Positions 36 through 44,400 of a stretch of DNA of 64,000 bases are shown here, in pieces. The notes beneath the pieces are model-generated. The model ran no database searches and was not told the DNA's origin. It saw only the letters and a program-made list of their open reading frames with translations. Positions within the stretch are counted from its first letter, which is position 1. The number at the start of each line of letters is the position of its first letter. The translations under genes and the position numbers were made by a program. The DNA comes from a virus. Location of the stretch: the IMG/VR virus record IMGVR_UViG_3300027759_000071, positions 18,227 through 82,226 of that record. One strand, written 5' to 3'.

Positions 36-3000
36 ATGTATAATAGCGATTTCAACACAAGTAGATATAATGACCCAAACGTAACGGTAACTAAGATTAC
101 TGAAAATATAAATCGTGTCACAATATCACAAGCGGGAGTTCCTGGTCCAAAGGGCGATAAGGGTGACCCGTATGGTTCATCTGGAACGGCAGGGTCATCG
201 GGAACATCTGGGACAAGTGGTACATCGGGCTCTGCTGGAAGTAGTGGTACAAGCGGTACAACTGGTTCACATGGCACATCTGGTTTTAGAGGCCCTGCCG
301 GAACAAGTGGTACAACGGGTAAAGATGGTACATATTTCGGAAGTAGTGGAACTTCAGGAACAACTGGTTCGCATGGTACATCTGGTACAAGCGGCTCATC
401 GGGAACATCTGGCACAAGTGGTACATCGGGAACATCTGGAACAAGTGGTACATCTGCAACGGATGGTAGTGCTGGCACTGACGGTAGCGCTGGTACTGAT
501 GGTAGTGCAGGAACGGATGGAACGGCTGGAACTGATGGTTCAGCTGGTACAACAGGTTCACATGGCACATCTGGTACTAGTGGAAAAAATGGTACATCTG
601 GCTCATCGGGAACATCTGGCACAAGTGGTTCATCTGGAAGTAGTGGTTCAACGGGAACTGCTGGTACATCTGGTACAACCGGCTCACAAGGTACATCTGG
701 TACATCTGGAAGTAGTGGAAGTGATGGTTCGTCTGGTACATCTGGTACTGATGGCTCTGCTGGTACATCGGGAAGTAGTGGAAGTAGCGGAAGTAGTGGT
801 ACTGATGGTAGTGCTGGAACTGATGGTAGTGCGGGAACAGATGGTTCAGCCGGTACATCGGGAAGTTCTGGAAGTAGTGGAACTGATGGTAGTGCCGGAA
901 CATCAGGAACAAGTGGTAGCAGTGGTTTAGCAGGTAAAGCTGGTTCATCGGGAACATCCGGTACGAGAGGTACATCTGGTAGTAGTGGAGCAAGAGGACC
1001 TAATGGTTCTAATGGTTCATCTGGGTCATCGGGAACTTCAGGAAAAAATGGTACATCTGGTAGTAGTGGTAATGATGGTACATCCGGTAGTAGTGGAAGT
1101 GATGGTTCATCTGGTACAAGCGGTACTGCTGGTTTAAGTGGAGCTGATGGTCCTATTTGGATTTTTGATTCAACTATTGCAGCATTTAATGAACCTACCT
1201 CTGGACATTTTATAACAAATGATAATTTCTTTAGTTCTATTCTTAATGTTAGTATTTGTGAAGCAAATGCATCTAATGGAGATATGTATGGATGGTTTAA
1301 CGCAATTAGCGTATATGCAGCAAATGGACATGATACATATGTAAGAATTAGTCAAGTTGGAAACACTGGTAATTTTGGTATTTATAAACTTAATACTTGC
1401 AATCGTAACCTATCAGGATTAAATCCATATTGGGATATTACATTCTATCAAGTTATTGCATCATCTGGACTTTTAGATAATGGAATTTCTTTTTCATTTT
1501 CTTGGTTTACAAATGGTATAACTGGTACATCGGGAACATCTGGCACAAGCGGCACATCTGGTGAAAGTGGTAGTGATGGCTCAGCTGGTACATCTGGAAC
1601 ATCTGGTACATCTGGAAGTGGTGGCTCAACTGGTTCGGCTGGTACATCGGGAACATCTGGCACAAGTGGGAGTAGTGGAAGTAATGGTTCATCGGGAACA
1701 TCAGGAACATCTGGTACAAGCGGTACATCTGGAAGTGATGGTAGTACGGGGTCAGCGGGAACATCTGGAACATCTGGCACAAGAGGAACATCGGGAAGTA
1801 GTGGTAGAACTCCTATTCAAGGTATAGATTATATTAGTACATCAGGTACAACCGGTTCGGCTGGTACATCCGGATTAGATGGGCAATTTTTAGGAAGTAG
1901 TGGTTCGTCTGGTAAAGATGGAACATCAGGAAGTTCTGGTTTTAATGGTACGGCTGGTTCATCGGGAACATCTGGTTCATCGGGTTCATCTGGTATTTCA
2001 ATAGCAGGTACATCTGGTTCATCTGGTACAACGGGTTCATATGGCACATCTGGTAGTGGTGGGCAAACTGGTTCATCGGGAACATCTGGAAGTGATGGAT
2101 ATGATGGAACATCTGGTACATCTGGACAAGCTGGTTCATCGGGAACATCTGGTTCATCTGGTTCATCTGGAACATCTGGATTTGATGGAGGACCTGGTTT
2201 AAATGGTACGGCTGGAAGTAGTGGTACATCGGGAACGCAAGGTGCACAAGGAGATCCTGGTACATCGGGAACATCTGGTACATCTGGTAGTAGTGGACTT
2301 GCTGGATTTTCAGGAACATCTGGAACATCTGGTACTGGTGGTTCGGCTGGTACATCTGGAAGTAGTGGAACATCTGGTACGACAGGTAAAGATGGACAAA
2401 ATGGTACATCGGGAACATCTGGAACTGGTGGTACATCATCAACCGCTGGTAGTGCTGGTACGGCAGGTTCATCTGGCACAGGCGGTTCTGCTGGAACTGA
2501 TGGAGTAGCTGGTTCATCTGGAACATCCGGTAAAAGTGGTACGGATGGTGCAGCTGGTAAAGATGGTTCGTCTGGAACATCGGGAAACACAGGATATAAT
2601 GGTACTGATGGTTCAGCCGGCTCATCTGGAGTTAGTGGTACATCTGGTACAACTGGTTATAGTGGTGTTAATGGAACATCTGGAAGTAGTGGTGCTAATG
2701 GAGCAGCTGGTACATCTGGTAAAGATGGTGCTGGATTTAGTGCTATATCACCTACAACATCTGGAGCAGTATTAACGGCAAATGGTACGGCAACAAGTGC
2801 AACAGCAAATACGGGTGTAACTATTACTGGTAACACACTTTATGCAGATGCATATTATCAAAATTCATCTCGAACTTTAAAAACTAATATTCTTCCATTT
2901 AATAAATCGGCATTACAAATTATTGGAAATGTTAATGTTGTAGAATTTAATTATTTAACTGATTTAAAAAATAGACATATTGGATTTATTGCAGAAGATA

Positions 3001-3119
3001 CTCCAGTTGAATTGACAACTAAACATCAAAATACAATGGATGTTCCATCTACTGTGGGAGTATTGGTAAAAGCAGTTCAAGAATTAGAAAAAAGAGTTAA
3101 GGATTTAGAAAATAAGTAA
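36..3119 (+). CDS. Collagen-like (Gly-X-Ser) fibre protein with C-terminal intramolecular chaperone (peptidase S74-like)
   Basis: Starts with true collagen triplets GVPGPKGDKGDP. Two long G-T/S-S tracts are split by a ~120-aa globular insert. The C-terminus SSRTLKTNI...IGFIAED...LVKAVQELEKRV is typical of the S74 chaperone. Confidence 0.8.
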   Translation: MYNSDFNTSRYNDPNVTVTKITENINRVTISQAGVPGPKGDKGDPYGSSGTAGSSGTSGTSGTSGSAGSSGTSGTTGSHGTSGFRGPAGTSGTTGKDGTYFGSSGTSGTTGSHGTSGTSGSSGTSGTSGTSGTSGTSGTSATDGSAGTDGSAGTDGSAGTDGTAGTDGSAGTTGSHGTSGTSGKNGTSGSSGTSGTSGSSGSSGSTGTAGTSGTTGSQGTSGTSGSSGSDGSSGTSGTDGSAGTSGSSGSSGSSGTDGSAGTDGSAGTDGSAGTSGSSGSSGTDGSAGTSGTSGSSGLAGKAGSSGTSGTRGTSGSSGARGPNGSNGSSGSSGTSGKNGTSGSSGNDGTSGSSGSDGSSGTSGTAGLSGADGPIWIFDSTIAAFNEPTSGHFITNDNFFSSILNVSICEANASNGDMYGWFNAISVYAANGHDTYVRISQVGNTGNFGIYKLNTCNRNLSGLNPYWDITFYQVIASSGLLDNGISFSFSWFTNGITGTSGTSGTSGTSGESGSDGSAGTSGTSGTSGSGGSTGSAGTSGTSGTSGSSGSNGSSGTSGTSGTSGTSGSDGSTGSAGTSGTSGTRGTSGSSGRTPIQGIDYISTSGTTGSAGTSGLDGQFLGSSGSSGKDGTSGSSGFNGTAGSSGTSGSSGSSGISIAGTSGSSGTTGSYGTSGSGGQTGSSGTSGSDGYDGTSGTSGQAGSSGTSGSSGSSGTSGFDGGPGLNGTAGSSGTSGTQGAQGDPGTSGTSGTSGSSGLAGFSGTSGTSGTGGSAGTSGSSGTSGTTGKDGQNGTSGTSGTGGTSSTAGSAGTAGSSGTGGSAGTDGVAGSSGTSGKSGTDGAAGKDGSSGTSGNTGYNGTDGSAGSSGVSGTSGTTGYSGVNGTSGSSGANGAAGTSGKDGAGFSAISPTTSGAVLTANGTATSATANTGVTITGNTLYADAYYQNSSRTLKTNILPFNKSALQIIGNVNVVEFNYLTDLKNRHIGFIAEDTPVELTTKHQNTMDVPSTVGVLVKAVQELEKRVKDLENK

Positions 3120-5077: not shown

Positions 5078-5130
5078 TAAGAAAGAATAAAACAAAAAAT
5101 TGATAATTATATTAAATAAAGGTTACAAAA

Positions 5131-8598: not shown

Positions 8599-8600
8599 TT

Positions 8601-10485: not shown

Positions 10486-10486
10486 T

Positions 10487-26850: not shown

Positions 26851-26868
26851 CAATAATATCATTGATTG

Positions 26869-26917: not shown

Positions 26918-29900
26918 ATGGCAATTAGTAATCTATTAACAGGAAGGGTAAGGGTTGTAAGCCCAAAAAATGTAACATCTGACAGATATCAGTTTTTGGA
27001 TTTGTCACAGGCCGAACCAAATTTTGGAGTCCCATCGTTCAGCGCATCTCTTTATGATAATCCAGCGATATTAGTTTCAGATTCCGATGGAAATAGAGGA
27101 TTTGTTCAATTACCATCATCCACAAAATTAGTAACTGGTTCAATAACGGCATCTGTAACTCCTGAATATGGATTTCAGGTAGTTTCTGTAGATAGTGGTT
27201 CTCAATTTACTGGTAGTGTATTTGTAAGTGGTAGTGTAACGGCCAATTATTTTATTGGAGATGGTTCACAACTTACAAATGTTGCATCGACTGTAGCACC
27301 TAGAATTGCTAGTGGTAGTGCAACCGCATCTATTTCTCCTGATTTGGGATTGCAAATAAATGTTGATACTACAATATTAGGAAATCTTTATGTATCCCAA
27401 TCAATAATTGCAGACCAACTTATTGTTAATTTAATCTCATCGTCTGTAATTTTTTCGTCTGGGTCTAATATATTTGGAAACACCAATACTAATATCCAAC
27501 AATTTACTGGTTCTGTTCAAATACAAACGGAATTAATAGCGGGATATGTAACAGCATCATCTTTTAGTGGTTCATTTACTGGAGATGGTAGTAATTTATT
27601 TAATGTACCTGCCGCAACTTCTCCTAGAATTGTTTCTGGTTCTGCAACAGCATCCATATCTCCGAATGAGGGATTATTAGTTAATACTGGAGTAACTATT
27701 GCGGATTATTTAATAGTTACTGGTTCGGCAACATTTTATTCAGCTGTATCCGCTTCAGTATTTAGTGGTAGTGGTGAATCATTGTTTAATTTACCTGACT
27801 CAAAAAGAATAGCAAGTGGTAGTGTAACCGCATCTGTAAGTCCTGATTCTGGATTTATTGTTGAATCATTAATTAAAGGTTCTCAATTTACTGGTAGTAT
27901 AAATGTTAGTGGTAGTGTATTAGTACAAAGTGGTTCATATCTTGTTGGAGATGGTAGATATTTAAGCAATATTTCTTTTGCAAATTTATCAATAGATTCA
28001 ACAAGAATATTTAGTGGAAGTGCAACAGCATCTATTTCACCATCAGAAGGATTTAAAGTAAATGTTAATTCAAGTATTAGTGGTAGTTTAAATGTATCTC
28101 AATCAATTATAGCATCACAATTTAGTGGCTCATTCTCTGGTTCTTTTCAAGGGGATGGTAGTAGATTAATAAATTTACCAATAGCTACTAAAATAGCAAG
28201 TGGTAGTGTAACTGCATCGGTTGACCCAAATAATGGATTTGTAGTAACATCGGTAGCAAATGGTTCTACTTTTAGTGGTAGTGTATTTTTAAGTAGCGGC
28301 TCTTATTTCTCTGGTAGTGGTAAATATATATTTGATATACCATTTGCAAATTTAACAGGAGATACAATTAGAATATCAAATGGTAATGTAACTGCATCAG
28401 TAAGTCCTGATTATGGATTTAAAGTAGAATCATTAGTAAGTGGTTCTCAATTTACTGGAAGTATAAGTGTAAGTGGAAGTATAAGTGTAAGTGGTAGTGT
28501 GACAGCATCATTTTTTGTTGGAGATGGTAGTAAATTATTTAACATACCAGCTTTAACCGCTGTATTAATAGCAAGTGGTAGTGTAACTGCTTCGGTAGCA
28601 CCTGATAAAGGATTTATTGTAACATCTACGGCAAGTGGTTCTAAATTTACTGGTTCAATAAATGTAAGTGGTAGTGTAACTGCATTTAATTTTTATGGTT
28701 CTGCATCTCAAGCTGAAAATGCAAATTTATTTGATGGTAGAGAATCATCAACATTTGCAACAACTGGTTCAAACTTATTTACTGGTTCTCAATTTATTAC
28801 TGGTAGCTTAACTGCTAATTTCTTTATTGGGGATGGTTCTGGATTAACTGGAGTAAGAGCTGATGTTACACCTCGTATAGCAAGTGGTAGTGTAACGGCA
28901 TCTATATCTCCTGATACTGGATTATTAGTAAACACAACTGTATCAGCATCTTCATTTAGTGGTAGTGGTGATGGATTATTTAATATTCCATTATCTGCAT
29001 TTAGTAGTGAAGTATCTAGAATAGCAACTGGTAGTATAACAGCATCTGTTAATCCTGATTATGGATTTAGAGTAGAATCTATTAGTAGTGGTTCTCAGTT
29101 TACGGGTTCATTATTTGTAAGTGGTAATATCCAAGTATCTTCTGGTTCATTTTTTAGTGGTAGTGGTGAGGGATTATTTAATATACCATTTGCATCTATA
29201 TCTGGAGAAATATCAAAAATTTCAAGCGGTTCTGCAACGGCATCAATTTCTCCTGATAAAGGATTTGAAATAAATGTAAATACAAGAATAACTGGCTCTC
29301 TATTAGTAGTTAGTTCTAGTAATTTTTTATCATCAGTATCTGCATCTATATTTAGTGGTAGTGGTGAATCTTTATTTAATATTCCATTAGCAGCATTAGC
29401 AACGGAAGCTCTAAGAATAGCAAATGGTGATGTAACCGCATCTGTTTCTAATGATGGATTTGTAGTAAAAACTCCATTCTCTGGTTCTCAAATTGGTTCT
29501 AGATTTACTGGTAGTTTATCAATTAGTGGTAGTGTATTTTTAAGTAGTGGTTCTTTTTATTCTGGATCTGGAGAAGGGTTATTTAATATTCCGTTTTCAG
29601 CATTATCTACTGAAGTGTTTAGAATTGCAAGTGGTAGTGTAACTGCATCAGCAAGTCCTAATTTTGGATTTGTCGTAACATCTGCTGCAAGTGGTTCTCA
29701 GTTTAGTGGTAGTGTTAGTATTAGTGGTTCATTAAGTGCATATGGAAATGGATTTATTAGTGGTACATTACTTGTAACATCTGCCTCTAATTTCTTTGAT
29801 AGTACTTTAATTATAACTCGCCAATATTCTCAATTTAGTGGTAGTGTATATGGTTCAATATTTAGTGGTTCTAATTTCTTTGGACAATCATTTAGTGGTT

Positions 29901-32900
29901 CGCATATTGGAGATGGTTCTCAATTAACTAATGTAAATGCATTATCGGCATATGTATTACAATCTGGCTCATTCACAGCATCATTTATACCAAATATCGG
30001 ATTAAAAGTTAATACAAATTTATTTGTTGAAAATGGTAGTGTAACCGCAAGTAATTTAAATTTAGTAAATAGTGCATATGTAGGAAATAATCTTTATGTA
30101 GAAAATAATATATACGCTAAACAAATATCTGTTCAATTTATATCATCATCGATAATTTATTCAACCGGTTCAAATATATTTGGAAACACCAATACCAATA
30201 TCCAACAATTTACTGGTTCTGTTAAAATACAAACGGAATTAATAGCAGGATTTGTAACAGCATCATCATATACTGGTTCATTTAGTGGGGCATTTAAAGG
30301 TGATGGTAGTGGATTAATAAATATCCCAGCAACAATACCAACATTAATAGCAACAGGCAGTGTATCTGCATCTGTATCATTACAAAATGGATTTGTAGTA
30401 AGAGCTTCTGAAAGTGGTTCTTTGTTTTATGGTAATGTTATTATTACTGGTTCTAAAACTGAATTAACTTCAAGTTTATTTGTAGAAGGACCTGCATTAT
30501 TTAAAAGTGGTATATCGGCATCTGTATTTAGTGGTAGTGGTGCGGGATTAACAAATTTACCAGAAACTACTAGATTGGGTAGTGGTAATGTAACAGCTTC
30601 AGTAAATTCTAATTTTGGATTTATTGTAATATCAACCGATAGTGGGTCTGTATTTACTGGTTCTATTTTAATAACCGGTAGTGTAACAATACCATCTGGG
30701 TCTGGATATTTTAGTGGTAGTGGTGAAGGATTGAGTAATATTCCATTCTCTGCTTTATCTGGGGATGCATTAAGATTAGCAAGTGGAAGTGTAACAGCTT
30801 CTATTTCTCCAAATAAAGGATTCGAAGTAAATACTTTTACAAAAATATCTGGAAGTTTAGTTGTATCATCATCGGGACATGTAGTAGATGTATCTGATAT
30901 TAATAAAGTATTTGCTGTAACTAATAACTCTTCTATGGAGTATTATTTTACCGGTGCAGTTAGTGGTTCAAATCCTACAATAACTTTAGTAAAAGGAGTA
31001 ACTTATACATTTAACGTAAACGCAAGTGGCCACCCATTTTACATAAAAGCTGCACCTGTAACTGGAACAGGTAGTACATATAATACGGGTGTATCTGGAA
31101 ATGGAACACAGGTAGGAACAATAACATTTACTGTACCAAATACCGCACCAGCAACTTTATATTATATTTGCCAATACCATTCAATGATGGTAGGTACAAT
31201 TAATATTGTTGATGAATTGGTAATACCAGCTACTATTGAATTAATTGGAGATGTGAATGTTACTGGAAGTGTAAGTATAACATTTGGTTCAACATTTAGT
31301 GGTAGTGGGGCAAACTTATTTGATATTCCATTCTCTGCATTTAGTGGAGATGCAATTCGTATAGCAAGTGGTTCTGCAACGGCATCAATATCTCCGATTA
31401 ATGGATTTTTGGTAAATACTAAAGCACAATTTGAAGGTAATGTGTCGGCATCAATGTTTACTGGTAGTGGTGCTGGATTATTTGATATTCCGTTCTCATC
31501 ATTTACCGGAGATGCATCTAGAATTTCTAGTGCTAGTGTAACGGCATCTGTTTCACCTACATTTGGATTTAAAGTGGAATCATTGAAAAGTGGTTCGCAA
31601 TTTACTGGTAGTATAAATGTAAGTGGAAGTATTTCAATATCATCTGGGTCTTTTTATTCTGGTAGTGGTAGATTTTTATTTGATATTCCAGAATCTGCAT
31701 TATCATTTTCTCCAAATAAAATAATAAGTGGTTCAGTAACAGCTTCTGTAAGTCCGGATTATGGATTTAGAATAGAATCAGTAGATTATGGTTCTGAATT
31801 TACTGGAAGTATTAGAGTATCTGGCTCTGTGAATATAGATAATTCATTGACTGTAACTAATTCGGTTATAGCAAACGAATTTAGTGGTTCATTTAGTGGT
31901 AGTGGTGCAAATTTATTTGATATTCCATTATCTGCGCTAGTACAAAATGTTTACCAAATAGCAACAGGTTCAGTAACCGCATCAGTAGACCCTAATATTG
32001 GATTTATTGTAAATTCAAACGCAACAATTACAGGTAGTTTAATTGTATCATCATCAACCACATTACAACAAGGTTTAAATGTATTGGGTAATGTAAATGT
32101 TGATACTCTTAATAGTGGTAGCTACGGAACTATTAATTTAAGTGGCTCTACAAATATAACTGGAGCATTGGATATTATAGGAGATGCTCATTTACATAAT
32201 GATTTATATGTTGATGGTAAAATTATAGCAAACCAAATAGTTACTAATTTAATTTCATCCTCAATAATTTATTCGTCTGGTTCTAATATATTTGGAAATG
32301 ATGTAACAAACTTCCAACAATTCACTGGTTCACTATATGTAAGTGGTGGAGTTGGTGGCGGGGTATTTTTAAATACTGGTTCAACATTTAGTGGTAGTGG
32401 TAGGGGGTTATTTGATATTCCTTTATCGGCATTAGCAGAAAATGTTTATCAGATGGCATCTGGTAGTGTAACTGCATCTGTATCTCCTAATAACGGATTT
32501 AAAGTTTATTCATTGGATGCTGGTTCTCAATTTACCGGTTCAGTTTATGTAACAGGTAGTGTATCGGCATCATTCTTTGTAGGAGATGGTTCACAATTAA
32601 CAAATGTTCTTGCAATAGTAGCTCCATTTATTGGTAGTGGTTCTGCAACTGGTTCGGTAACAAGCGGGGACCAATTTATAGTAACAACAGCAAAAACTGG
32701 TTCTCAACTTGGTTCTATATTTACTGGTTCAATAGAAGTTAGTGGAAGCATTAGAGCAACTGATTATCTTATTGGGGATGGTACATATATTACAAATGTA
32801 TTTGCACAATCATCTCCAAAAATTGAAAGTGGTAGTGTAACGGCTTCAGTAAGTCCTAATTTTGGATTTAGAGTACAAACTCCATTTACACAATCTCAAA

Positions 32901-35900
32901 TAGGTTCTCAATTTACTGGTTCAATTGAAGTTAGTGGAAGTATTAGAGCAACTCAATATTTATTTGGTGATGGTACGTTTATTACTAACGTACAAGCATC
33001 AGCAGCCCCTTTAATAGCAAGTGGTTCAGCAACAGCATCGGTATCAAGTGGTAATACATTTGTAGTAACAACTGGAGCAACTGGTTCAGCTATTGGTTCT
33101 AGATTTACCGGTTCTATTGATGTAAGTGGTAGTGTTAAGGCATTTACGTTTATAGGAGATGGTTCTCAATTAACCAATGTACAAGCATCATCTGCGCCAT
33201 TTATCGCTAGTGGTTCGGCAACAGCATCTGTACAAAGTGGTGATACATTTATAGTTATAACTGGTGCAACGTCTGGTTCGGCAGTAGGTTCTCAATTTAC
33301 TGGTTCGGTGGCAATTAGTGGTTCACTAAGCGCATCCTTATTTGTAGGAGATGGTGGTGGATTATTTAACATTCCAGCCGCAGCATTGCAAGATCTTGAA
33401 TTAAATAAAATTATTTCTGGTTCGGCTATAGCAATAATTTCACCTAATAATGGTTTGAATATTAATACAACAATATCAGCATCTCTTTATTTTGGAGATG
33501 GTGGTGGATTGTTTAACATCCCTGCAAATGCATTAACAGACCTTAAGTTAGATAAATTAGTTTCTGGTTCTGCAACAGCATCTATTTCACCTATTGATGG
33601 ATTTAGAACAAATATATTTGCAGCAATTACCGGTGGTATTTATGTAACTGGTGGGAATTTTGTAGCAGCATCCGGTTCTACATATGTAGGAGATGGAAGT
33701 GGATTGACAAATATTAATATTGCAAACTTAGCATTTGAAACATCAATATTAAAATCAGGATCATTTACAGCATCTGTTTCTCCTAATAATGGATTTGTTA
33801 CAAACGCATCTGCAAGTATTTACGGTAACTTATATGTTGATAAAGGAATTACTAGTTCATTTATATATTCTCCATATTTTACTGGTTCATTCAATGGCAC
33901 ATATACATTTAGAGGAACTGGGCCAACCGCATCTGCTGAATATGATATTTTAAGATATGATGAAGCTAGGGGATATTATATTCCTCAACCTGAATATTCA
34001 AATGTGGAAACTGTTGGATTTAGTAATGTAAACATTTTAACAATTGTTCACAACTTAGGAGTTTTATATCCGGTTGTTCAGGTTTATCAAACTGGTTCAC
34101 AACAACAAATTCTACCAGCAACTATTGAATCAATTGACTTAAACACTATAAAAATTACATTTAGTGGAACTGAAAGTGGACAAGTAGTAATTGGTAGTGG
34201 GGGTAGTGTAATTAGTGGTACAATACAAGGTAATAGAGTAGTAGGAACTGTTAATTCCGCATCTTACGCAGTATATGCTGAAAATGCAGGAACGGCATCT
34301 ACTTTACTTGGTTTAACAAATGAAAATGTACAACAATTATTGTCAGCATCATTACAGCCTGGCAATTACGTTTTATCATCTCAAACTGCATCGATGAGAG
34401 TATTAAGCTCATCTTACGCAGCAACTGCATCTTACGCATTAAATGCAAATATTGATACAACATTATTTGTATTAAATTCACAAACAGCTTCAATGTTTGT
34501 AGGTACAGCATCTTTAGCATACCAAGCGATATCAGCATCATTCTCTGCCAATGGCGGTGGCGGTGGTGGTTTTGTTGATACGGCTAGTTTTGTATTAAAT
34601 TCACAAACAGCTTCAATGCGTGTATTAAGTGCATCATATGCTATAACAGCATCTTACGCAGCTTACGCAGCAAATGCTTCAAACGTAGACACAACAGCAT
34701 TTATTAATAAGTACTTAGATAGTACTATGTTCGCAAACTTTGTTGTAACAGGAAGTTTTGGTGCTAGTGGTAGTGTTTATGTAAATAATTTATATACATC
34801 CTCTTTATCATCTTATGTATTAACTTGGAATACAACAACTCATCAATTAGAAGCTAGAGACGTAGCTGGAGCAAGTGGTACATCCGGAACATCTGGCACA
34901 TCGGGAACATCTGGGTCATCTGGTACATCTGGTTCATCTGGAAGTAGTGGTACTGATGGTTCTGGTGGTACATCTGGTACTAGTGGTACATCTGGTAGTG
35001 ATGGTACATCTGGAAGTAGTGGTACGGATGGCTCAGCTGGTACATCGGGAACATCTGGTACATCTGGAACATCGGGTTCGTCTGGTTCAAGCGGTTCATC
35101 TGGTAGTGATGGTTCATCTGGTTCAAGCGGAAGTAGTGGAACATCAGGAACATCTGGTACATCTGGGTCATCTGGTACATCTGGTTCATCTGGAAGTAGT
35201 GGTAGTAGTGGAACAAGTGGTTCATCTGGAAGTAGTGGTTCTGCTGGTACATCGGGAACATCTGGTTCTACGGGTTCGGCTGGAAGTAGTGGTACATCAG
35301 GAACATCTGGTACATCTGGAAGTAGCGGTTCATCTGGAACATCTGGAACATCTGGCACAAGCGGCTCATCGGGAACATCTGGTACAAGTGGTACATCGGG
35401 AACATCTGGTACAAGCGGAAGTAGTGGTTCATCGGGATATGATGGTTCATCCGGTAGTAGTGGTTCATCTGGTTCATCTGGAAGTAGTGGAACATCCGGT
35501 ACATCTGGTACATCGGGAACATCTGGTACATCTGGAAGTAGTGGTGAATCTGGAACGGATGGTTCGGCTGGTTCATCTGGTACAAGTGGTGAATCAGGAA
35601 CATCTGGTACATCTGGAAGTAGTGGTACATCTGGAAGTAGTGGTACATCTGGAAGTAGTGGTTCATCGGGAACAACTGGTTCAGCTGGTACATCTGGCTC
35701 ATCTGGAACATCTGGAACAAGCGGTTCATCTGGAAGTAGTGGTTCATCGGGAACATCTGGAACATCTGGAACATCTGGTTCAACAGGTTCGGCTGGTTCA
35801 TCTGGGTCATCTGGAACATCTGGAAGTAGTGGAACGCGTGGTACATCTGGAAGTAGTGGTACATCAGGTTCAACTGGTTCGGCTGGTACATCTGGTACAA

Positions 35901-38900
35901 GTGGTTCATCTGGTTCGGCTGGCTCATCGGGAACATCTGGAAGTAGTGGTACATCAGGAACATCTGGTAGTAGTGGTTCGTCTGGTTCTACTGGTAGTGA
36001 TGGTACATCTGGAAGTAGTGGTTCATCTGGTTTAGACGGAACATCTGGTACAAGCGGAAGTAGTGGTAGTAGTGGAACATCAGGTACATCAGGTAAAAGT
36101 GGTACGGATGGCACATCTGGTTCGTCTGGGTCATCTGGTTCGTCTGGTTCGTCTGGATTAAGTGGAACATCTGGTACATCAGGTAAAAGTGGTACGGATG
36201 GTACAAGCGGCTCATCTGGAACATCTGGTAAAGCTGGTTCATCGGGAACATCTGGTAGTAGTGGTTCATCTGGTACATCAGGTAAAAGTGGTTCATCGGG
36301 AACATCTGGTTCGTCTGGATTAAGTGGTACTGATGGTACATCTGGAAGTAGTGGTTCATCTGGAAGTAGTGGCAGTAGTGGTACTGACGGTTCGGCTGGA
36401 ACATCTGGCTCAAGTGGTACTGATGGTTCAGCTGGTACAAGTGGTTCATCTGGTACAAGCGGTTCATCTGGTTCAGCTGGAAGTAGTGGTAGCAGTGGTA
36501 CTGATGGTTCTGCAGGAACAAGCGCTACAAGCGGTTCATCTGGTTCATCTGGAAGTAGTGGTAGTGATGGTACATCTGGCACAAGTGGTTCATCTGGAAG
36601 TAGTGGTACTGATGGTTCAGCTGGAACATCTGGAAGTAGTGGAGAAAATGGAACATCAGGAACATCTGGCACAAGCGGTACATCTGGTACATCAGGAACA
36701 TCTGGAGAAAGTGGTACTGATGGTTCATCTGGAAGTAGTGGTATTTCTTGTTTAACATATCTTTTATCTAATGAGGATCCTGATAATCCTGCAGTGTTCG
36801 ATTGGACACGATGTGATTTTACATCAGGAGACCAAATAACAATAAACCCTGGTGACCCGAATGTAGAAATTTGTGCAATTGGAGAATCTGTTGTATTAGC
36901 AAATCCACCATACGGAACAATAAATTTAGTAGGTGCATGTCATGGTACATCTGGTGTTGATGGTTTACCTGGATATACTCCTGAATTTGGAGTAGATTAC
37001 TTTAATGGTACGGATGGTTCATCTGGTTCATCTGGTTTAAATGGATTAGCTGGTACATCTGGTACATCTGGTACATCGGGCAGTAGTGGAAGTAGTGGTT
37101 CATCGGGAACATCTGGTACAAGAGGTACAAGCGGCTCATCTGGTACGAGTGGTTCATCAGGATTAAGTGGAACATCTGGAAGTAGTGGTACATCTGGCAC
37201 ATCAGGTATATCTGGTTCAGCTGGTACATCTGGAACATCTGGAAGTAGTGGTGAAAATGGTTCATCGGGAACATCTGGTAGTAGTGGTTCATCTGGTACA
37301 TCAGGAATAAGTGGTACAGCTGGAAGTAGTGGTACATCTGGTAGTGGTGGTAAAGATGGTACATCTGGAAGTAGTGGAGCAGACGGTACATCTGGAACAT
37401 CTGGTACATCTGGTTCTTCTGGATATTCTGGAACGGATGGTTCAGCTGGTACATCTGGTACATCTGGAAGTAGTGGAATAAGTGGTTCATCAGGAACATC
37501 AGGAACATCCGGAACAAGTGGAAGTAGTGGTTCATCGGGAACATCTGGTATTAGTGGAGCTGGTTCAACATCTGGAACTTCGGGAACATCTGGAACATCG
37601 GGACAAAGTGGTTCGTCTGGAACAAGCGGTACATCTGGAGAAAGTGGTTCGGCTGGTACAAGCGGAACATCTGGTGTAAGTGGTAAAGACGGTAAAGATG
37701 GTACATTTGTTGGAAGTAGTGGTTCGTCTGGAACATCAGGAACATCTGGTTCGTCTGGTACAAGCGGAACATCTGGGTCATCTGGTTCATCGGGAACATC
37801 TGGTATTAGTGGAGCAAGTACAACATCAGGAACATCTGGTTCATCTGGTACATCCGGGCAAAGTGGTACATCTGGTTCATCAGGAACATCTGGCACAAGC
37901 GGCATTAGCGGTACGGATGGTACTTACTTTGGTACAAGCGGAACATCAGGAACATCTGGTACATCTGGTTCATCTGGTGAAAGTGGCTCTGCTGGTACAT
38001 CTGGAACTTCGGGAACATCTGGAGCAAGTGGTAAAGATGGTACTTATTTTGGTTCAGCTGGTACAAGCGGTACAAGCGGTACAAGCGGTACATCTGGAGA
38101 AAGTGGTACATCTGGCATATCCGGCTCATCAGGAACATCTGGTGTAAGTGGTACGGATGGTACATTCTTTGGTACATCCGGAACTTCGGGAGTAAGCGGT
38201 TCATCTGGAACATCTGGTATTAGTGGAGTAGCATCAACATCTGGTTCATCAGGAACATCTGGTACATCTGGAGCAAGTGGTAAAGATGGAACATTCTTTG
38301 GCTCATCAGGAACGTCTGGAGTTAGTGGTTCGGCTGGTACATCTGGTACATCTGGTATTAGTGGAGCTGGTGCAACGTCTGGTTCATCTGGTACATCTGG
38401 AAGTAGTGGTAAAGACGGAACTTACTTTGGAAGTAGTGGTACATCTGGAGTTAGCGGTTCATCTGGTACATCGGGTCTTAGTGGAGCTGGTGCAACATCT
38501 GGGACATCGGGAACATCCGGTGTAAGTGGTAAAGACGGTACTTATTTTGGAAGTAGTGGAACATCTGGAGTTAGCGGAACATCTGGTACATCAGGTCTTA
38601 GTGGTGTAACCGCAACCGCCGGTACATCTGGAACATCTGGGTCATCTGGTACATCTGGTATTAGTGGTTTAAATGGTACATATTTTGGAAGTAGTGGAAC
38701 ATCGGGCACATCGGGTCTTAGTGGTGCAACGGCAACAGCAGGTTCATCCGGCACATCTGGGTCATCTGGTACAAGCGGTATTAGTGGAACTGATGGTACT
38801 TATTTTGGTACAAGCGGAACATCAGGAGTAAGTGGAACATCTGGTACATCATTCTATGGTGTAACATCTGGAACGTCTGGAGTATCTGGAACATCTGGTA

Positions 38901-39412
38901 CATCCTTTTACGGAGTAACATCTGGTACGCGTGGTTCTGCTGGTACATCTGGAACTTCTGGGTTTTTAACTTTAACCGGTACAACTGATAATGGTATATT
39001 AACATTAAATGGTGCACAACCAAATGCAAGTGTTGAAGCTAATTTAACATTTGATGGTAGCTTGTTGACAGTAGCTGGAGCAGTATCACCAACAACATAT
39101 AGAGAAACATATTCTGATTTAGGAACTGGTGGAGCAACATTCTCAATCGATTTAAGTACAGCAAACAATTTTAAGAAAACTGTAAACGCAAATGGAACGG
39201 TTACAATAACAAATCCACCAGCTGGAAAAGCATTTGGATTTACACTAGCATTAACAAATGGTGGTGGATATACAATAGCTTGGACTAGTGTTAAATGGGC
39301 TGGTGGAGCACAACCAACTCTAACAACATCTGGTACGGATATTATTGTAATATATACTTATGATGGAGGCAGTACCTATTATGGTTTCTTAGCCGGAAAA
39401 AATATGATATAA
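26918..39412 (+). CDS. Giant (4164 aa) fibre protein: IASGSVTAS/GSQFTGS repeats, cupredoxin domain, ~1300-aa Gly-X-Ser tract, C-terminal globular domain
   Basis: Dozens of RIASGS.TAS.SP..GF.V...FTGS..VSGS...F.G.GS.L.N units; HPF...YYICQYHSMM; G-X-S tract from 34870 to 38960. Confidence 0.75.
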   Translation: MAISNLLTGRVRVVSPKNVTSDRYQFLDLSQAEPNFGVPSFSASLYDNPAILVSDSDGNRGFVQLPSSTKLVTGSITASVTPEYGFQVVSVDSGSQFTGSVFVSGSVTANYFIGDGSQLTNVASTVAPRIASGSATASISPDLGLQINVDTTILGNLYVSQSIIADQLIVNLISSSVIFSSGSNIFGNTNTNIQQFTGSVQIQTELIAGYVTASSFSGSFTGDGSNLFNVPAATSPRIVSGSATASISPNEGLLVNTGVTIADYLIVTGSATFYSAVSASVFSGSGESLFNLPDSKRIASGSVTASVSPDSGFIVESLIKGSQFTGSINVSGSVLVQSGSYLVGDGRYLSNISFANLSIDSTRIFSGSATASISPSEGFKVNVNSSISGSLNVSQSIIASQFSGSFSGSFQGDGSRLINLPIATKIASGSVTASVDPNNGFVVTSVANGSTFSGSVFLSSGSYFSGSGKYIFDIPFANLTGDTIRISNGNVTASVSPDYGFKVESLVSGSQFTGSISVSGSISVSGSVTASFFVGDGSKLFNIPALTAVLIASGSVTASVAPDKGFIVTSTASGSKFTGSINVSGSVTAFNFYGSASQAENANLFDGRESSTFATTGSNLFTGSQFITGSLTANFFIGDGSGLTGVRADVTPRIASGSVTASISPDTGLLVNTTVSASSFSGSGDGLFNIPLSAFSSEVSRIATGSITASVNPDYGFRVESISSGSQFTGSLFVSGNIQVSSGSFFSGSGEGLFNIPFASISGEISKISSGSATASISPDKGFEINVNTRITGSLLVVSSSNFLSSVSASIFSGSGESLFNIPLAALATEALRIANGDVTASVSNDGFVVKTPFSGSQIGSRFTGSLSISGSVFLSSGSFYSGSGEGLFNIPFSALSTEVFRIASGSVTASASPNFGFVVTSAASGSQFSGSVSISGSLSAYGNGFISGTLLVTSASNFFDSTLIITRQYSQFSGSVYGSIFSGSNFFGQSFSGSHIGDGSQLTNVNALSAYVLQSGSFTASFIPNIGLKVNTNLFVENGSVTASNLNLVNSAYVGNNLYVENNIYAKQISVQFISSSIIYSTGSNIFGNTNTNIQQFTGSVKIQTELIAGFVTASSYTGSFSGAFKGDGSGLINIPATIPTLIATGSVSASVSLQNGFVVRASESGSLFYGNVIITGSKTELTSSLFVEGPALFKSGISASVFSGSGAGLTNLPETTRLGSGNVTASVNSNFGFIVISTDSGSVFTGSILITGSVTIPSGSGYFSGSGEGLSNIPFSALSGDALRLASGSVTASISPNKGFEVNTFTKISGSLVVSSSGHVVDVSDINKVFAVTNNSSMEYYFTGAVSGSNPTITLVKGVTYTFNVNASGHPFYIKAAPVTGTGSTYNTGVSGNGTQVGTITFTVPNTAPATLYYICQYHSMMVGTINIVDELVIPATIELIGDVNVTGSVSITFGSTFSGSGANLFDIPFSAFSGDAIRIASGSATASISPINGFLVNTKAQFEGNVSASMFTGSGAGLFDIPFSSFTGDASRISSASVTASVSPTFGFKVESLKSGSQFTGSINVSGSISISSGSFYSGSGRFLFDIPESALSFSPNKIISGSVTASVSPDYGFRIESVDYGSEFTGSIRVSGSVNIDNSLTVTNSVIANEFSGSFSGSGANLFDIPLSALVQNVYQIATGSVTASVDPNIGFIVNSNATITGSLIVSSSTTLQQGLNVLGNVNVDTLNSGSYGTINLSGSTNITGALDIIGDAHLHNDLYVDGKIIANQIVTNLISSSIIYSSGSNIFGNDVTNFQQFTGSLYVSGGVGGGVFLNTGSTFSGSGRGLFDIPLSALAENVYQMASGSVTASVSPNNGFKVYSLDAGSQFTGSVYVTGSVSASFFVGDGSQLTNVLAIVAPFIGSGSATGSVTSGDQFIVTTAKTGSQLGSIFTGSIEVSGSIRATDYLIGDGTYITNVFAQSSPKIESGSVTASVSPNFGFRVQTPFTQSQIGSQFTGSIEVSGSIRATQYLFGDGTFITNVQASAAPLIASGSATASVSSGNTFVVTTGATGSAIGSRFTGSIDVSGSVKAFTFIGDGSQLTNVQASSAPFIASGSATASVQSGDTFIVITGATSGSAVGSQFTGSVAISGSLSASLFVGDGGGLFNIPAAALQDLELNKIISGSAIAIISPNNGLNINTTISASLYFGDGGGLFNIPANALTDLKLDKLVSGSATASISPIDGFRTNIFAAITGGIYVTGGNFVAASGSTYVGDGSGLTNINIANLAFETSILKSGSFTASVSPNNGFVTNASASIYGNLYVDKGITSSFIYSPYFTGSFNGTYTFRGTGPTASAEYDILRYDEARGYYIPQPEYSNVETVGFSNVNILTIVHNLGVLYPVVQVYQTGSQQQILPATIESIDLNTIKITFSGTESGQVVIGSGGSVISGTIQGNRVVGTVNSASYAVYAENAGTASTLLGLTNENVQQLLSASLQPGNYVLSSQTASMRVLSSSYAATASYALNANIDTTLFVLNSQTASMFVGTASLAYQAISASFSANGGGGGGFVDTASFVLNSQTASMRVLSASYAITASYAAYAANASNVDTTAFINKYLDSTMFANFVVTGSFGASGSVYVNNLYTSSLSSYVLTWNTTTHQLEARDVAGASGTSGTSGTSGTSGSSGTSGSSGSSGTDGSGGTSGTSGTSGSDGTSGSSGTDGSAGTSGTSGTSGTSGSSGSSGSSGSDGSSGSSGSSGTSGTSGTSGSSGTSGSSGSSGSSGTSGSSGSSGSAGTSGTSGSTGSAGSSGTSGTSGTSGSSGSSGTSGTSGTSGSSGTSGTSGTSGTSGTSGSSGSSGYDGSSGSSGSSGSSGSSGTSGTSGTSGTSGTSGSSGESGTDGSAGSSGTSGESGTSGTSGSSGTSGSSGTSGSSGSSGTTGSAGTSGSSGTSGTSGSSGSSGSSGTSGTSGTSGSTGSAGSSGSSGTSGSSGTRGTSGSSGTSGSTGSAGTSGTSGSSGSAGSSGTSGSSGTSGTSGSSGSSGSTGSDGTSGSSGSSGLDGTSGTSGSSGSSGTSGTSGKSGTDGTSGSSGSSGSSGSSGLSGTSGTSGKSGTDGTSGSSGTSGKAGSSGTSGSSGSSGTSGKSGSSGTSGSSGLSGTDGTSGSSGSSGSSGSSGTDGSAGTSGSSGTDGSAGTSGSSGTSGSSGSAGSSGSSGTDGSAGTSATSGSSGSSGSSGSDGTSGTSGSSGSSGTDGSAGTSGSSGENGTSGTSGTSGTSGTSGTSGESGTDGSSGSSGISCLTYLLSNEDPDNPAVFDWTRCDFTSGDQITINPGDPNVEICAIGESVVLANPPYGTINLVGACHGTSGVDGLPGYTPEFGVDYFNGTDGSSGSSGLNGLAGTSGTSGTSGSSGSSGSSGTSGTRGTSGSSGTSGSSGLSGTSGSSGTSGTSGISGSAGTSGTSGSSGENGSSGTSGSSGSSGTSGISGTAGSSGTSGSGGKDGTSGSSGADGTSGTSGTSGSSGYSGTDGSAGTSGTSGSSGISGSSGTSGTSGTSGSSGSSGTSGISGAGSTSGTSGTSGTSGQSGSSGTSGTSGESGSAGTSGTSGVSGKDGKDGTFVGSSGSSGTSGTSGSSGTSGTSGSSGSSGTSGISGASTTSGTSGSSGTSGQSGTSGSSGTSGTSGISGTDGTYFGTSGTSGTSGTSGSSGESGSAGTSGTSGTSGASGKDGTYFGSAGTSGTSGTSGTSGESGTSGISGSSGTSGVSGTDGTFFGTSGTSGVSGSSGTSGISGVASTSGSSGTSGTSGASGKDGTFFGSSGTSGVSGSAGTSGTSGISGAGATSGSSGTSGSSGKDGTYFGSSGTSGVSGSSGTSGLSGAGATSGTSGTSGVSGKDGTYFGSSGTSGVSGTSGTSGLSGVTATAGTSGTSGSSGTSGISGLNGTYFGSSGTSGTSGLSGATATAGSSGTSGSSGTSGISGTDGTYFGTSGTSGVSGTSGTSFYGVTSGTSGVSGTSGTSFYGVTSGTRGSAGTSGTSGFLTLTGTTDNGILTLNGAQPNASVEANLTFDGSLLTVAGAVSPTTYRETYSDLGTGGATFSIDLSTANNFKKTVNANGTVTITNPPAGKAFGFTLALTNGGGYTIAWTSVKWAGGAQPTLTTSGTDIIVIYTYDGGSTYYGFLAGKNMI
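34870..38960 (+). repeat. Gly-X-Ser triplet tract (9-nt period, e.g. ggtacatct, ggaagtagt), interrupted at ~36740-37000
   Basis: Read directly from the DNA and translation. Comparable tracts lie at ~175-1145, ~1515-2730 and ~42500-44335. Confidence 0.95.
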
Positions 39413-39418
39413 TAAGTT

Positions 39419-40282: not shown

Positions 40283-40284
40283 TT

Positions 40285-40728
40285 ATGTATTTAAGAATTA
40301 TAAACGATACTATAATATATCCATATACAATTCAACAATTAAAGTTAGATAATTCAAATGTAACTTTTCCTGAAAATTTAACTAATGCTGTTTTACTTCA
40401 ATGGGATATGATTAGTGTTCAACCAACAGTAAAACCAAACGATTATACAAAAAATATTTCCGAAGGAACTCCTGAATTAATAGATGGTACATATAATCAA
40501 GTTTGGAATCAATCAAACGCATCTGAAACGGAAATTAATATTCGTATAGAAAATAAATGGATAGAAATCAGAAATTTGAGAGACCAATTACTTTTAGAAT
40601 CTGATTGGACACAATTAGCAGATTCTCCGCAAATTACAAATAATGACTGGAAAACATACAGACAATATCTTAGAGATATTACCAGTCAAAGTAACCCTTT
40701 TGGTATAAGCTGGCCTACAAAACCTTAA
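40285..40728 (+). CDS. Phage tail fibre assembly chaperone
   Basis: W..IR..RD.LL.ESDWTQL.D.P...W..YRQ.LRDIT.Q...WP.KP signature. Confidence 0.8.
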   Translation: MYLRIINDTIIYPYTIQQLKLDNSNVTFPENLTNAVLLQWDMISVQPTVKPNDYTKNISEGTPELIDGTYNQVWNQSNASETEINIRIENKWIEIRNLRDQLLLESDWTQLADSPQITNNDWKTYRQYLRDITSQSNPFGISWPTKP

Positions 40729-40741
40729 AAGGAAATTTATT

Positions 40742-40750
40742 ATATTTATA
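40742..40750 (+). promoter_or_regulatory. Putative late promoter ATATTTATA
   Basis: Intergenic, 24 nt before the ATG at 40775. Confidence 0.6.
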
Positions 40751-40774
40751 CCTATAACAAAATTACGGATATAA

Positions 40775-41110: not shown

Positions 41111-41122
41111 AAATAAAAATAA

Positions 41123-41458: not shown

Positions 41459-41472
41459 AAGTAATAAAATAG

Positions 41473-44400
41473 ATGAATGTTTTAGGCAAAAATCCTAACG
41501 GGTTTAATCAGATTAGTCAAAGTGTATTAGCGGTAACGGTAAATGGTATTGACCAAGTAAATGTATCAACATCATCGGTATCAGTTAATACATCGTTAAA
41601 TGTAATAAACTCAATAACCGCATCTATATTTAGTGGTTCACAATTTAGTGGTTCGTTTAGTGGTTCGTTTACTGGAGATGCTAGTAAGTTATATAATGTA
41701 ACTCAAATAGCTAGTGGTTCTATCTATGTAAAAGTAAATGAAAATAATGTACTAATAAGTGGTAGTACTCAAATTACTGGTAGTGTAAGAGTAACTGGTA
41801 GTGTATATGTAGAAACTGGTTCTTATTTTGTTGGAGATGGTTCTCAATTAAGAAATATTAATGCTGATTCAATTGGCGATATAAATAGAATTAAGTCAGG
41901 TTCAGCAATTGCTGTAATATCTCCTGATAAAGGATTGGAGATAAATATAAAAACAACTATAACAGGTTCTTTAATAGTTAGTGGAAGTGAAATAATTACT
42001 GGTAGTGTAAACATTTTAGGTAATGAAACTATCAATGGTAATGTAATTGTAAACGGAACGGAAAATATAAATGGTAACTTAAATGTTACTGGAGCTTTAC
42101 AGGTAACAGCTGGTGAAAATATAACTGGTAGTTTGAATGTAAGTGGTAGTGAAAATTTAATTGGTAACTTAACAATAACTGGTAACGAAAATATAAATGG
42201 AAATTTAGTTGTTACTGGTTCTCAAATAATAACACAAAATTTAACTGTAGCTGGTACTATTGTTTCAAATCAAATTGTAACAAACATAGTATCATCATCA
42301 GTAGTATATTCATCTGGCTCAAACATATTTGGTAATTCTGTAACAAATATACAACAATTAACTGGTAGTGTAAAAATAACAGGTAGTTTAATTGTTAGTG
42401 GTAGTGTTTATGTGGATAGTATCCCATCATCATTATCAAACCAAGTATTAGTAGTTGATACATCAACTGGTCAAATTGGTTCTAGATTTGCAGCAGCAAC
42501 ATCCGGTACATCTGGCACATCGGGAACATCTGGTACTTCAGGAGTAAGTGGTACATCTGGTAGTAGTGGTTCATCGGGAACATCTGGAAGTAGTGGTTCA
42601 TCTGGTAGTACTGGTACAGCTGGTACAACGGGTTCGGCTGGAACATCTGGAAGTAGTGGAACATCAGGAACATCTGGTACAAGCGGTTCATCCGGAACAT
42701 CTGGCACATCGGGAACATCTGGTTCATCCGGAACATCTGGTACACGTGGTACATCAGGAACATCTGGAGTAAGTGGTAGTAGTGGTTCGTCTGGAAGTAC
42801 TGGTTCTGCTGGTACATCTGGTTTGACTGGTACAAGTGGTTCATCTGGTACATCCGGAAGTAGTGGTTCATCTGGTAAAGATGGTTCATCTGGTACATCC
42901 GGAAGTAGTGGAAGTAGTGGAACAAGAGGTTCAGCTGGTTCATCGGGATTGACAGGAACAAGTGGTTCATCTGGTGTATCTGGTAGTAGTGGAACATCTG
43001 GTAAAGATGGAAGTAGTGGTAAAGATGGTTCATCTGGTACATCTGGTACATCTGGAAGTAGTGGAATAAGTGGTTCAGCCGGAACATCTGGCACAAGTGG
43101 AATAAGTGGGTCATCAGGAACATCTGGAACATCTGGTTCATCTGGAAGTAGTGGTTTAACTGGTGGTGGTGGTACATCTGGAATAAGCGGTACAAGCGGT
43201 ACAAGTGGCACAAGTGGCACAAGTGGAAGTAGTGGTTCGTCTGGTTCATCCGGCTCTACTGGTACGGCTGGTACATCTGGAAGTAGCGGTACATCTGGTA
43301 CATCAGGAATAAGTGGTTCATCTGGAACAAGTGGGGTTAGTGGTTCATCAGGATTATCTGGAACTGCTGGTTCATCTGGAAGTAGTGGTTCATCGGGAAC
43401 AACTGGTTCAGCTGGTACATCAGGAACATCTGGGACAAGTGGGTCATCAGGAACAAGTGGATTATCTGGTGCTACTGGTACATCAGGATTATCTGGAACT
43501 GCTGGTTCATCTGGTACAAGTGGTACATCGGGAATATCTGGCACAGCTGGAACATCTGGTAAAGATGGAGTAATAGGTTCATCTGGTTCGGCTGGCACAT
43601 CGGGAACATCTGGCACATCGGGAACATCTGGAAGTAGTGGTTCATCTGGTTCAGCTGGTACATCGGGAACATCTGGTTCATCGGGTTCATCTGGAGCACA
43701 AGGTTCATCTGGCTCAGCTGGTACATCGGGTACATCTGGAAGTAGTGGTTCAAGTGGTAGTAGTGGGACTAGTGGAACAAGCGGAAGTAGTGGTTCATCT
43801 GGAAGTAGTGGTTCATCTGGAGCACAAGGTTCATCTGGTTCAGCTGGAACATCGGGAACATCTGGCACAAGCGGTTCATCGGGAACGTCTGGTACAAGTG
43901 GCTCATCGGGAACATCTGGTATAAGCGGTTCATCAGGAACATCTGGCACAAGCGGTTCATCAGGAACATCTGGAGTAAGTGGAAGTAGTGGTTCATCGGG
44001 AACATCGGGAACATCGGGCACATCTGGAAGTAGTGGAACATCTGGTTCATCTGGTACGTCAGGAACAAGAGGTACATCTGGAAGTAGTGGTAGTAGTGGT
44101 TCATCTGGTTCATCCGGAAGTAGTGGTGCTACGGGAGCCAGTGGTTCATCTGGAAGTAGTGGTAGTAGTGGCACAAGCGGTACATCAGGAACATCTGGCA
44201 CAAGCGGTACTTCAGGAACATCTGGAAGTAGTGGTTCATCCGGTTCATCTGGTTCATCGGGAACATCTGGCACAAGCGGTACATCTGGAAGTAGTGGTAC
44301 ATCAGGATCAAGAGGTACATCCGGTTCATCTGGATTGTTATCTTTAAGTGGTGGTACTGATAATGGTGTAATAACACTAAATGGTACTGCACCAAATGCA

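Follow-up and report, generated by a model that had tools for sequence, protein, structure and literature searches.

The DNA analysed here is a stretch of 64,000 nucleotides (nt), called the window throughout, and forms the right-hand 64 kb of the IMG/VR record IMGVR_UViG_3300027759_000071, which is 82,226 nt long and has a CheckV completeness of 41%. It carries three large open reading frames (ORFs), designated A, B and C, whose products contain long Gly-X-Y tracts with almost no proline. The genes of the window form the structural module of an uncultured T4-like myovirus from water, with a gp23-type capsid gene located immediately upstream of it on the same contig; on sheath identity the closest isolates were Flavobacterium phage immuto (47%) and Microcystis phage Mel-JY01 (46%). 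The G+C content is ~31% overall and 43-46% across the tracts, since the GGN, ACN and TCN codons require it.

Strict counting, in which Gly was required at each third residue and only runs of at least four triplets were scored, gave 726 Gly-X-Y residues in ORF A, 1,248 in ORF B and 612 in ORF C, that is 2,586 amino acids (aa) or 862 triplets. These values agree with the ~720, ~1300 and ~610 aa of Gly-X-Ser 'collagen' described in an earlier account made from the DNA letters (the sequence-only reading), and the total rises to ~2,650-2,700 aa once the single register-breaking residues in the C-terminal array of ORF B are counted too. Gly makes up 33.3% of the tract residues. Position X is occupied by Thr in 47% and by Ser in 36% of the triplets (83% together) and position Y by Ser in 73%, Ala in 8% and Asp in 7%, the commonest triplets being GTS, GSS, GSA and GTD. 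GTS and GSS together account for 561 of the 862 triplets, a composition of the Pro-free GTS/GSS type found in Bucl3 (PMC4565658). The near absence of proline claimed in the sequence-only reading was borne out, as nine of the 2,586 residues are Pro (0.35%) and none of these lies in the ORF C tract, and Asp, Glu, Lys and Arg together amount to 112 residues (4.3%).

The two variable positions are not equivalent. Over the 862 triplets Ile, Leu and Val occur ~63 times at X versus ~3 times at Y, Lys 24 times at X and twice at Y, and Asp three times at X and 62 times at Y. Lys, Glu and the Ile/Leu/Val group are nearly confined to X while Asp, Ala, Asn and Arg are found at Y, and this inequality agrees with a fixed geometry that admits only small residues at Y. 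Searches against Pfam placed all three products in the Collagen family (PF01391), with E values of 7e-92, 3e-139 and 3e-79 and scores of 301.6, 453.2 and 261.2 bits for ORFs A, B and C, respectively, the curated cut-off being 27.2 bits. Coordinates of the tracts, of the domains next to them and of the neighbouring genes are collected in Table 1.

Table 1. Tract-bearing genes, their domains and neighbouring features. Nucleotide positions are those of the window unless marked as contig positions; aa positions refer to the ORF named.
Feature	Position	Strand	Remarks
ORF A, 1,027-aa collagen-like fibre protein	36..3119	+	242 triplets in 9 runs, longest 77 triplets
ORF A runs	nt 135-170, 174-335, 339-455, 465-1157, 1515-1811, 1845-1889, 1893-2000, 2007-2438, 2448-2735	+	strict count
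ORF A globular insert	aa 375-493	+	between Gly-X-Y runs
ORF A C-terminal S74 chaperone	aa 944-988, nt ~2865-2999	+	Peptidase_S74 (PF13884), 36.3 bits, cut-off 22
ORF B, 4,164-aa fibre protein	26918..39412	+	416 triplets in 22 runs
ORF B cupredoxin-like module	aa ~1330-1432, nt 30905-31213	+	..YICQYHS.M.G..; 59% identical to P-SSM2 orf028 module
ORF B longest tract	34868..36523	+	184 unbroken triplets, strict count
ORF B interrupted array	37574..38968	+	~10 units of 40 or 43 aa
ORF C, 2,960-aa tail-fibre protein	41473..50355	+	PHROG tail-fibre families on C-terminal part
ORF C tract	42505..44340	+	204 unbroken triplets, no Pro, strict count
ORF C S74 chaperone	aa 2834-2891, nt ~49972-50145	+	PF13884, 62.2 bits, cut-off 22
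Collagen-like ORF, 381 aa	contig 9956-11101		upstream of window; Pfam Collagen, E 3e-27
Collagen-like ORF, 473 aa	contig 15488-16909		upstream of window; Pfam Collagen, E 4e-7
2OG-Fe(II) oxygenase, 156 aa	contig 9000-9470		PF13532, AlkB-like; ~500 nt upstream of collagen-like ORF 9956-11101
GT-A-fold domain and radical SAM/SPASM domain fusion, 739 aa	5131..7350	+	fold comparison
Neck genes	7408-10135		profile searches
Phage_tail_APC (Pfam), fibre assembly chaperone-like gene	40285..40728	+	between ORFs B and C
Sheath	50870-53197		profile searches
Tube	53250-53738		profile searches
Baseplate hub	53849-54607		profile searches
848-aa ORF, putative tape measure	55123-57669	+	no Pfam or PHROG match; named by position after tube, hub and chaperone genes
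Shadow ORF, 609 aa	34843..36672	-	opposite ORF B long tract
Further shadow ORFs	42471-44273, 1829-2590, 36997-37905	-	over tracts

The tracts are embedded in proteins with the architecture of trimeric fibres. Proteins of the S74 family fold trimers from the C-terminus, and such a chaperone domain had been claimed for two of the three products; it was identified at the C-terminal end of ORFs A and C, above the Pfam cut-off in both. By eye, the stretches that may correspond to the catalytic Ser-Lys pair of the self-cleavage site read ..YYSDIRLKENI.. in ORF C and ..NSSRTLKTNI.. in ORF A. The ORF C tract is preceded by a conserved stretch (aa 231-344) and followed by the motif TDNG..TLNG...LxFDGxxLxVxG, which is common to ORFs B and C. 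The chaperone-like gene between these two ORFs is syntenic in the related IMG/VR loci L090, L017, L008 and L046.

ORF B consists of 2,650 N-terminal residues of beta-type repeats, followed by its Gly-X-Y triplets and by a C-terminal domain of 147 aa. In the array at the end of its collagen-like part each unit contains one +1 break, GT(Y/F)FG, and one loss of Gly that keeps the register, where Ala, Val or Ser takes the place of Gly (for example GAGATSG or GVASTSG). The breaks in this super-repeat of 40 or 43 residues could correspond to kinks at regular spacing or to docking sites on the fibre. A third and more divergent copy of the cupredoxin-like module seems to be present in a 5,011-aa protein encoded at 10873-25908.

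The three Gly-X-Y genes announced in the sequence-only reading were all recovered in the window, but the contig contains at least five, two of which lie just upstream of it. The first of these (contig 9956-11101) and ORF A have the same type of N-terminal start, ..VT.SQAG..GPKGD..G.SGTAGSSG, whose opening triplets are of the classical Pro/charged type. Long ORFs on the minus strand lie over the tracts because the reverse complement of GGN-ACN-TCN is without stop codons; the plus-strand frame through the tracts continues into domains recognised by Pfam.

Analysis with Tandem Repeats Finder (TRF) revealed that the tract copies match one another at 60-75% and are not perfect DNA tandems. In the ORF C tract 595 of the 604 in-frame 27-mers are distinct, and Ser is encoded in the tracts by both the AGY and the TCN codon families. 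Selection was assessed on one sequence pair, the ORF C tract and its homologue in IMG/VR locus L090, a close relative in which the adjacent small ORFs are 98-99.7% identical. Over 203 aligned triplets the Gly codons showed 61 synonymous and no amino-acid changes, the Y codons 62 synonymous and nine amino-acid changes, and the X codons 18 synonymous and 37 amino-acid changes, 27 of which were exchanges between Ser and Thr. The sole indel is exactly one triplet, so that the two tracts are 204 and 203 triplets long at a nucleotide divergence of 14%. Length does differ at greater evolutionary distance, the ORF B homologue in L017 having 321 triplets versus 416. Because of the contrast between synonymous and amino-acid changes, we consider that Gly and a small residue at Y are under strong purifying selection with X freer, and that the repeat, as judged from this sequence pair, is selected and more than a product of slippage.

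These data bear on a different explanation of the tracts, namely that they are flexible hydrophilic spacers of mucin type, possibly glycosylated, which are extended and not triple-helical and whose periodicity comes mainly from recombination between repeats. Low complexity, richness in Ser and Thr and a poor predicted helix stability would all suit such spacers, and every TRF period in the unbroken tracts is a multiple of 9 nt, which means that recombination leaves the register intact. A disordered spacer, however, needs neither a constraint on Gly nor the strong asymmetry between X and Y, nor the conservation between relatives of tract length and of the modules on either side, and each of these counts against it. 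An unconstrained Gly codon is expected to give about twice as many non-synonymous as synonymous changes (six versus three of the nine single-base changes), while 0 versus 61 were found. We consider this explanation improbable.

The three-residue period of Gly is also common to polyglycine II (PGII) proteins, and the sequence-only reading had raised a PGII bundle as an alternative, in which short single-chain helices would pack side by side as in the snow-flea antifreeze protein or a gp38-type adhesin. PGII sandwiches do occur in phage adhesins. In the tracts, however, the share of Gly is exactly one third and not above 40%, and X is mostly the beta-branched Thr. Autocorrelation over the 612 and 552 unbroken residues of ORFs C and B gave weak peaks at multiples of three only, and no super-period of 9-13 residues or turn motif was detected in them. 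Since the flanks, in addition, are modules of trimeric fibres, a PGII fold appears very improbable.

In order to describe the distribution of such tracts, IMG/VR was searched with a DNA pattern for GTS-GTS-xx-GTS. The search returned at least 119 loci, and Gly-X-Y runs were found in 117 of the 119 listed; at least 65 of these 117 have 300 or more Gly-X-Y residues with less than 1% Pro. Unbroken Pro-free runs of 929, 843, 670 and 470 triplets were found in loci L100, L112, L115 and L092, respectively, and several of them end at a contig edge. The same pattern retrieved mostly short runs from prokaryote genomes, with 47-79 triplets in Burkholderia and 100 or more in two of 120 loci. This class of tract is thus widespread in uncultured phages.

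A blastn search of 50,697 phage records with the ORF C tract gave matches to two records only, a 735-kb uncultured phage (LR756501.1) with an ORF of 2,816 aa containing 778 triplets, and the cultured cyanophage Mel-JY01 (PP395634.1), in which positions 2-3049 of the plus strand encode at least 202 Gly-(T/S)-(S/R/D/G) triplets. In GenBank this region of Mel-JY01 is annotated instead with low-complexity ORFs on the opposite strand (1-651 and 739-2298, LVPEVPELP...), which are probably shadow ORFs annotated by mistake. A literature search for a paper on Mel-JY01 found none. Among the isolates nearest by sheath, immuto, P-SSM2 and the 484-kb record LR756508 had no stretch of seven consecutive G-[ST]-[ST] triplets; this is weak evidence, because the Mel-JY01 tract, with its interspersed GTR, GTD and GTG, escaped the same pattern.

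Taken together, we regard it as probable that the tracts are homotrimeric collagen-like fibre shafts of a Pro-free, nearly uncharged Ser/Thr composition. Three identical chains, each extended in a polyproline-II-like conformation with Gly at the axis, would wind into a collagen-type triple helix. The register would be set by the conserved non-collagen modules at both ends of the tract and, in ORFs A and C, also by the C-terminal S74 domain acting as an intramolecular chaperone. The side chains at X and Y would point outward and give a nearly uncharged rod surface dense in hydroxyls, and the rod would serve to keep distal binding domains well away from the particle. Provided that the tracts are triple-helical, the length arithmetic of the sequence-only reading is right: at 0.286 nm per residue the rods would reach 175 nm in ORF C, 208 nm (~210 nm) in ORF A and, summed over the runs, 357 nm (up to ~360 nm) in ORF B. 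The comparison of these lengths with a tail length taken from the tape measure is weakened, the 848-aa ORF in question being without a profile match and named by position alone.

Support for triple-helical shafts comes from the unbroken Gly periodicity over 204 and 184 triplets and the Pfam Collagen match, and from the trimeric fibre setting given by the S74 domains of ORFs A and C, the PHROG tail-fibre matches of ORF C and the assembly chaperone gene between ORFs B and C. The purifying selection on Gly and on a small residue at Y, the inequality of X and Y and the precedents of EPclA and of the Pro-free Bucl proteins speak for such shafts as well. The stretches before and after the tract recur, among the matches listed, in 21-24 of the 119 independent tract-bearing IMG/VR loci, as would be expected if they fix the register at the two ends. 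Modules are also shared with the collagen fibres of cyanomyophages. A motif near the N-terminus of ORF B is found in P-SSM2 orf023 (E 4e-8), and its cupredoxin-like module of 100 aa matches a module of P-SSM2 orf028 (E 1e-37) that is placed between two collagen tracts of that protein. P-SSM2 orf023 and orf028 carry classical Pro-rich GPT/GPP collagen, with 56 Pro at X in the 89 triplets of orf028. Because ORF B shares modules with these Pro-rich proteins, the Ser/Thr tract occupies the place that an ordinary collagen tract has in related architectures. A sequence search of the PDB with the tract end and the following domain retrieved collagen chains only, together with a 'spindlefibril/axialfibril' entry (8zxl) that we could not trace in the literature.

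The stability of collagens is usually put down to imino acids, hydroxyproline, charge pairs or, rarely, glycosylated Thr. Several points weigh against a collagen-type shaft. With imino acids at 0.35% and charged residues at about 4%, the tracts lack the stabilising composition of known collagens, and both known non-animal stabilisers are missing. A Pfam search detected no S74 domain in ORF B. The contrast between synonymous and non-synonymous changes comes from a single sequence pair, and unequal recombination of DNA with a 9-nt period keeps the register mechanically, which makes periodicity alone weaker evidence. The presence of the fibres on virions is a point that we infer. Finally, in recombinant Bucl8 (GAS)19 the 220-nm collagen band in circular dichroism (CD) was shallow at 25 C and lost at 50 C, and the melting temperature (Tm) of the GAS host-guest peptide was 33 C (PMC7682875). 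The same CD signal indicates that Pro-free Gly-small-Ser sequences can form a weak triple helix, and the claim that the unmodified tracts should make a weak one is a fair expectation, since the usual stabilisers are missing and the Bucl8 data fit it (PMC7682875).

The sequence-only reading had held that a weak helix fits an adjacent glycosyltransferase, and we considered whether such an enzyme accompanies the tracts. No glycosyltransferase was matched in the window by Pfam, NCBIfam or PHROG profiles, and the GT-A domain of the 739-aa fusion protein is visible by fold only. Residues 1-81 were not confidently modelled; residues 82-390, predicted by AlphaFold2 with a predicted local distance difference test (pLDDT) score above 90, adopt a GT-A-like fold with invariant D185 and D187, and the radical SAM/SPASM part follows. 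Comparison with Foldseek grouped residues 82-390 with retaining GT-A enzymes (E ~3e-6, TM to target 0.5-0.6), namely alpha-1,3-galactosyltransferase, the UGGT catalytic domain, glycogenin, Skp1 alpha-galactosyltransferase and collagen hydroxylysine galactosyltransferase. Between ORF A and this gene, at 3119-5077 on the plus strand, lies a gene for a 652-aa mucin-like protein, in which Cys-containing modules are joined by poly-Thr and (T)nEPP linkers and for which no family match was found in Pfam, PHROGs or NCBIfam.

At least 578 relatives of the GT-A domain were found in IMG/VR, fused to GT2, GT6, GT11, Glyco_transf_7C, methyltransferase or radical SAM domains. One of 80 loci with such a relative has 30 or more Ser/Thr triplets within 10 kb; at the level of whole records, tracts occur in one of five large GT-A-bearing records and the GT-A gene in one of four large tract-bearing records. 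The close relatives L059 and L088 are without the GT-A gene in the same genomic island. Thus the GT-A fold of the adjacent protein is predicted with confidence, but the gene does not travel with the tracts, and a link between the two was rejected on these counts. In another record (G001) a GT-A/radical SAM fusion gene was observed ~3 kb from a weak GT9 match.

A different gene, Glyco_transf_9 (GT9, PF01075), was found in 16 of 25 tract-bearing phage records versus none of 15 tract-less ones (Fisher p = 4e-5), and in 13 of the 25 when only matches above the Pfam cut-off were counted (p = 5e-4). All of the tract-less controls had been selected by way of the GT-A gene and possibly represent one lineage, so that the association may partly reflect phage lineage; many records are fragments. 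The GT9 gene lies 1.3-5.8 kb from the tract in six of 13 records inspected. In Mel-JY01 a GT9-type domain is located ~5 kb downstream of the tract, inside a 1,226-aa coding sequence named 'methyltransferase FkbM'.

These results raise the possibility of a sugar-dependent collagen, in which Ser and Thr would have to be densely O-glycosylated by a phage-encoded transferase before the triple helix could form, or form stably, much as with the glycosylated Thr of worm cuticle collagen and with glycosylated BclA; this would refine the proposed homotrimeric shaft rather than exclude it. The two hydroxyls per triplet and the missing stabilisers would be accounted for, the GT9 counts and positions point the same way, and the window encodes both the enzyme with the GT-A-fold and radical SAM domains and, next to ORF A, the protein with poly-Thr linkers. 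On the other hand, no GT9 gene was found in the 82-kb contig, which is 41% of the genome, the adjacent GT-A-like gene shows no link to tracts in other phages, and lineage may contribute to the GT9 association through the choice of controls. Bucl8 (GAS)19 produced in E. coli, moreover, showed a helix signal, and glycosylation was not reported for it (PMC7682875). We see sugar dependence as a serious possibility, although one that we lean against. A hydroxylase was also considered as a recurring partner of the tracts. The 2OG-Fe(II) oxygenase gene upstream of the window is separated from the collagen-like ORF by one small ORF (contig 9569-9952); the candidate was dropped, as the enzyme shows no similarity to PiuC, the P-SSM2 protein encoded close to orf028, and none of the 119 tract loci listed contains a relative of it.

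The tracts matter because Gly-(Thr/Ser)-Ser runs of 200 to more than 900 triplets, without imino acids, hydroxyproline or charge pairs, appear to be kept under purifying selection. If they fold, they would offer a clean natural system for the minimal chemistry of the triple helix and, for biomaterials, a rod rich in hydroxyls that has neither Pro nor charge. Very long thin fibres, possibly sugar-coated, would be implied on many aquatic myoviruses and jumbo phages. That the tracts are true triple helices hundreds of nm in length, free of imino acids and nearly free of charge, held by networks of Ser/Thr hydroxyls and water or by GT9-type O-glycosylation, is rather unlikely in our view; if true, a large and mostly uncultured group of aquatic phages would be building filaments on the micrometre scale. 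To our knowledge, stabilisation by Ser/Thr hydroxyl-water networks alone or by phage GT9-type O-glycosylation is uncharacterised for any collagen. If the tracts are ordinary weak collagen stalks, they would be a compositional footnote to 'bacteriophage collagen'. An annotation problem is also exposed: the ORF that is called may be a shadow on the opposite strand and not the real gene, which is apparently what happened in Mel-JY01.

Collagen-like sequences in phage fibres have been described before. The term 'bacteriophage collagen' goes back to Smith et al. 1998, as cited in PMC1079782, where P-SSM2 orf023 and orf028 are described as 'tail fibre-like' proteins. The prophage protein EPclA of E. 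coli O157:H7 is a proven trimer whose stalk is collagen (Tm 42 C) with 48% Pro at X, and the viral collagens surveyed have 22% Pro, 35% Asp/Glu and 3% Thr at X (PMC3368898, Table 4), while in bacterial collagens X is Pro and Y is Thr (PMC8968730). The tracts described here resemble those of EPclA and P-SSM2 in that Gly-X-Y sequence lies inside trimeric fibre proteins between globular modules. The known tracts, in contrast, are rich in Pro and charge and tens of triplets long, while here Pro is at 0.35%, charged residues are at 4% and runs extend to 204 triplets. Literature searches for proline-free collagen in phages returned nothing specific.

The C-terminal S74 domains of ORFs A and C are shared with the S74 fibres (PF13884) of the endosialidase and T5 L-shaped fibre family. 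The best-known S74 substrates, however, are beta-helical or triple-beta-helix stalks and not collagen, and ORF B differs from them in being without S74. Thr is glycosylated in the cuticle collagen of vent worms, and the glycans are thought to aid stability. BclA, a collagen-like trimer of the Bacillus anthracis/cereus exosporium, has (GPT)n repeats whose Thr O-glycans are likewise thought to aid stability (PMC8968730). BclA differs from the tracts in having Pro at X and Thr at Y, while here Thr is at X, Ser is at Y and Pro is missing.

The closest likeness in triplet vocabulary, Pro-free Gly-small-Ser, is to Bucl3 and Bucl8. The Bucl proteins of Burkholderia are Pro-free, and Bucl3 has 38-63 triplets of GTS/GSS (PMC4565658). 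Bucl3 and Bucl8 are cell-surface or efflux-pump proteins and not virion fibres, and their DNA repeats are short and near-perfect. The flanks of the tracts match phage fibre families. The composition of the tracts is thus far from the described norm, yet not without precedent. Collagen-like fibres of phages were already known, and what is new here is a variant of them in composition and size.

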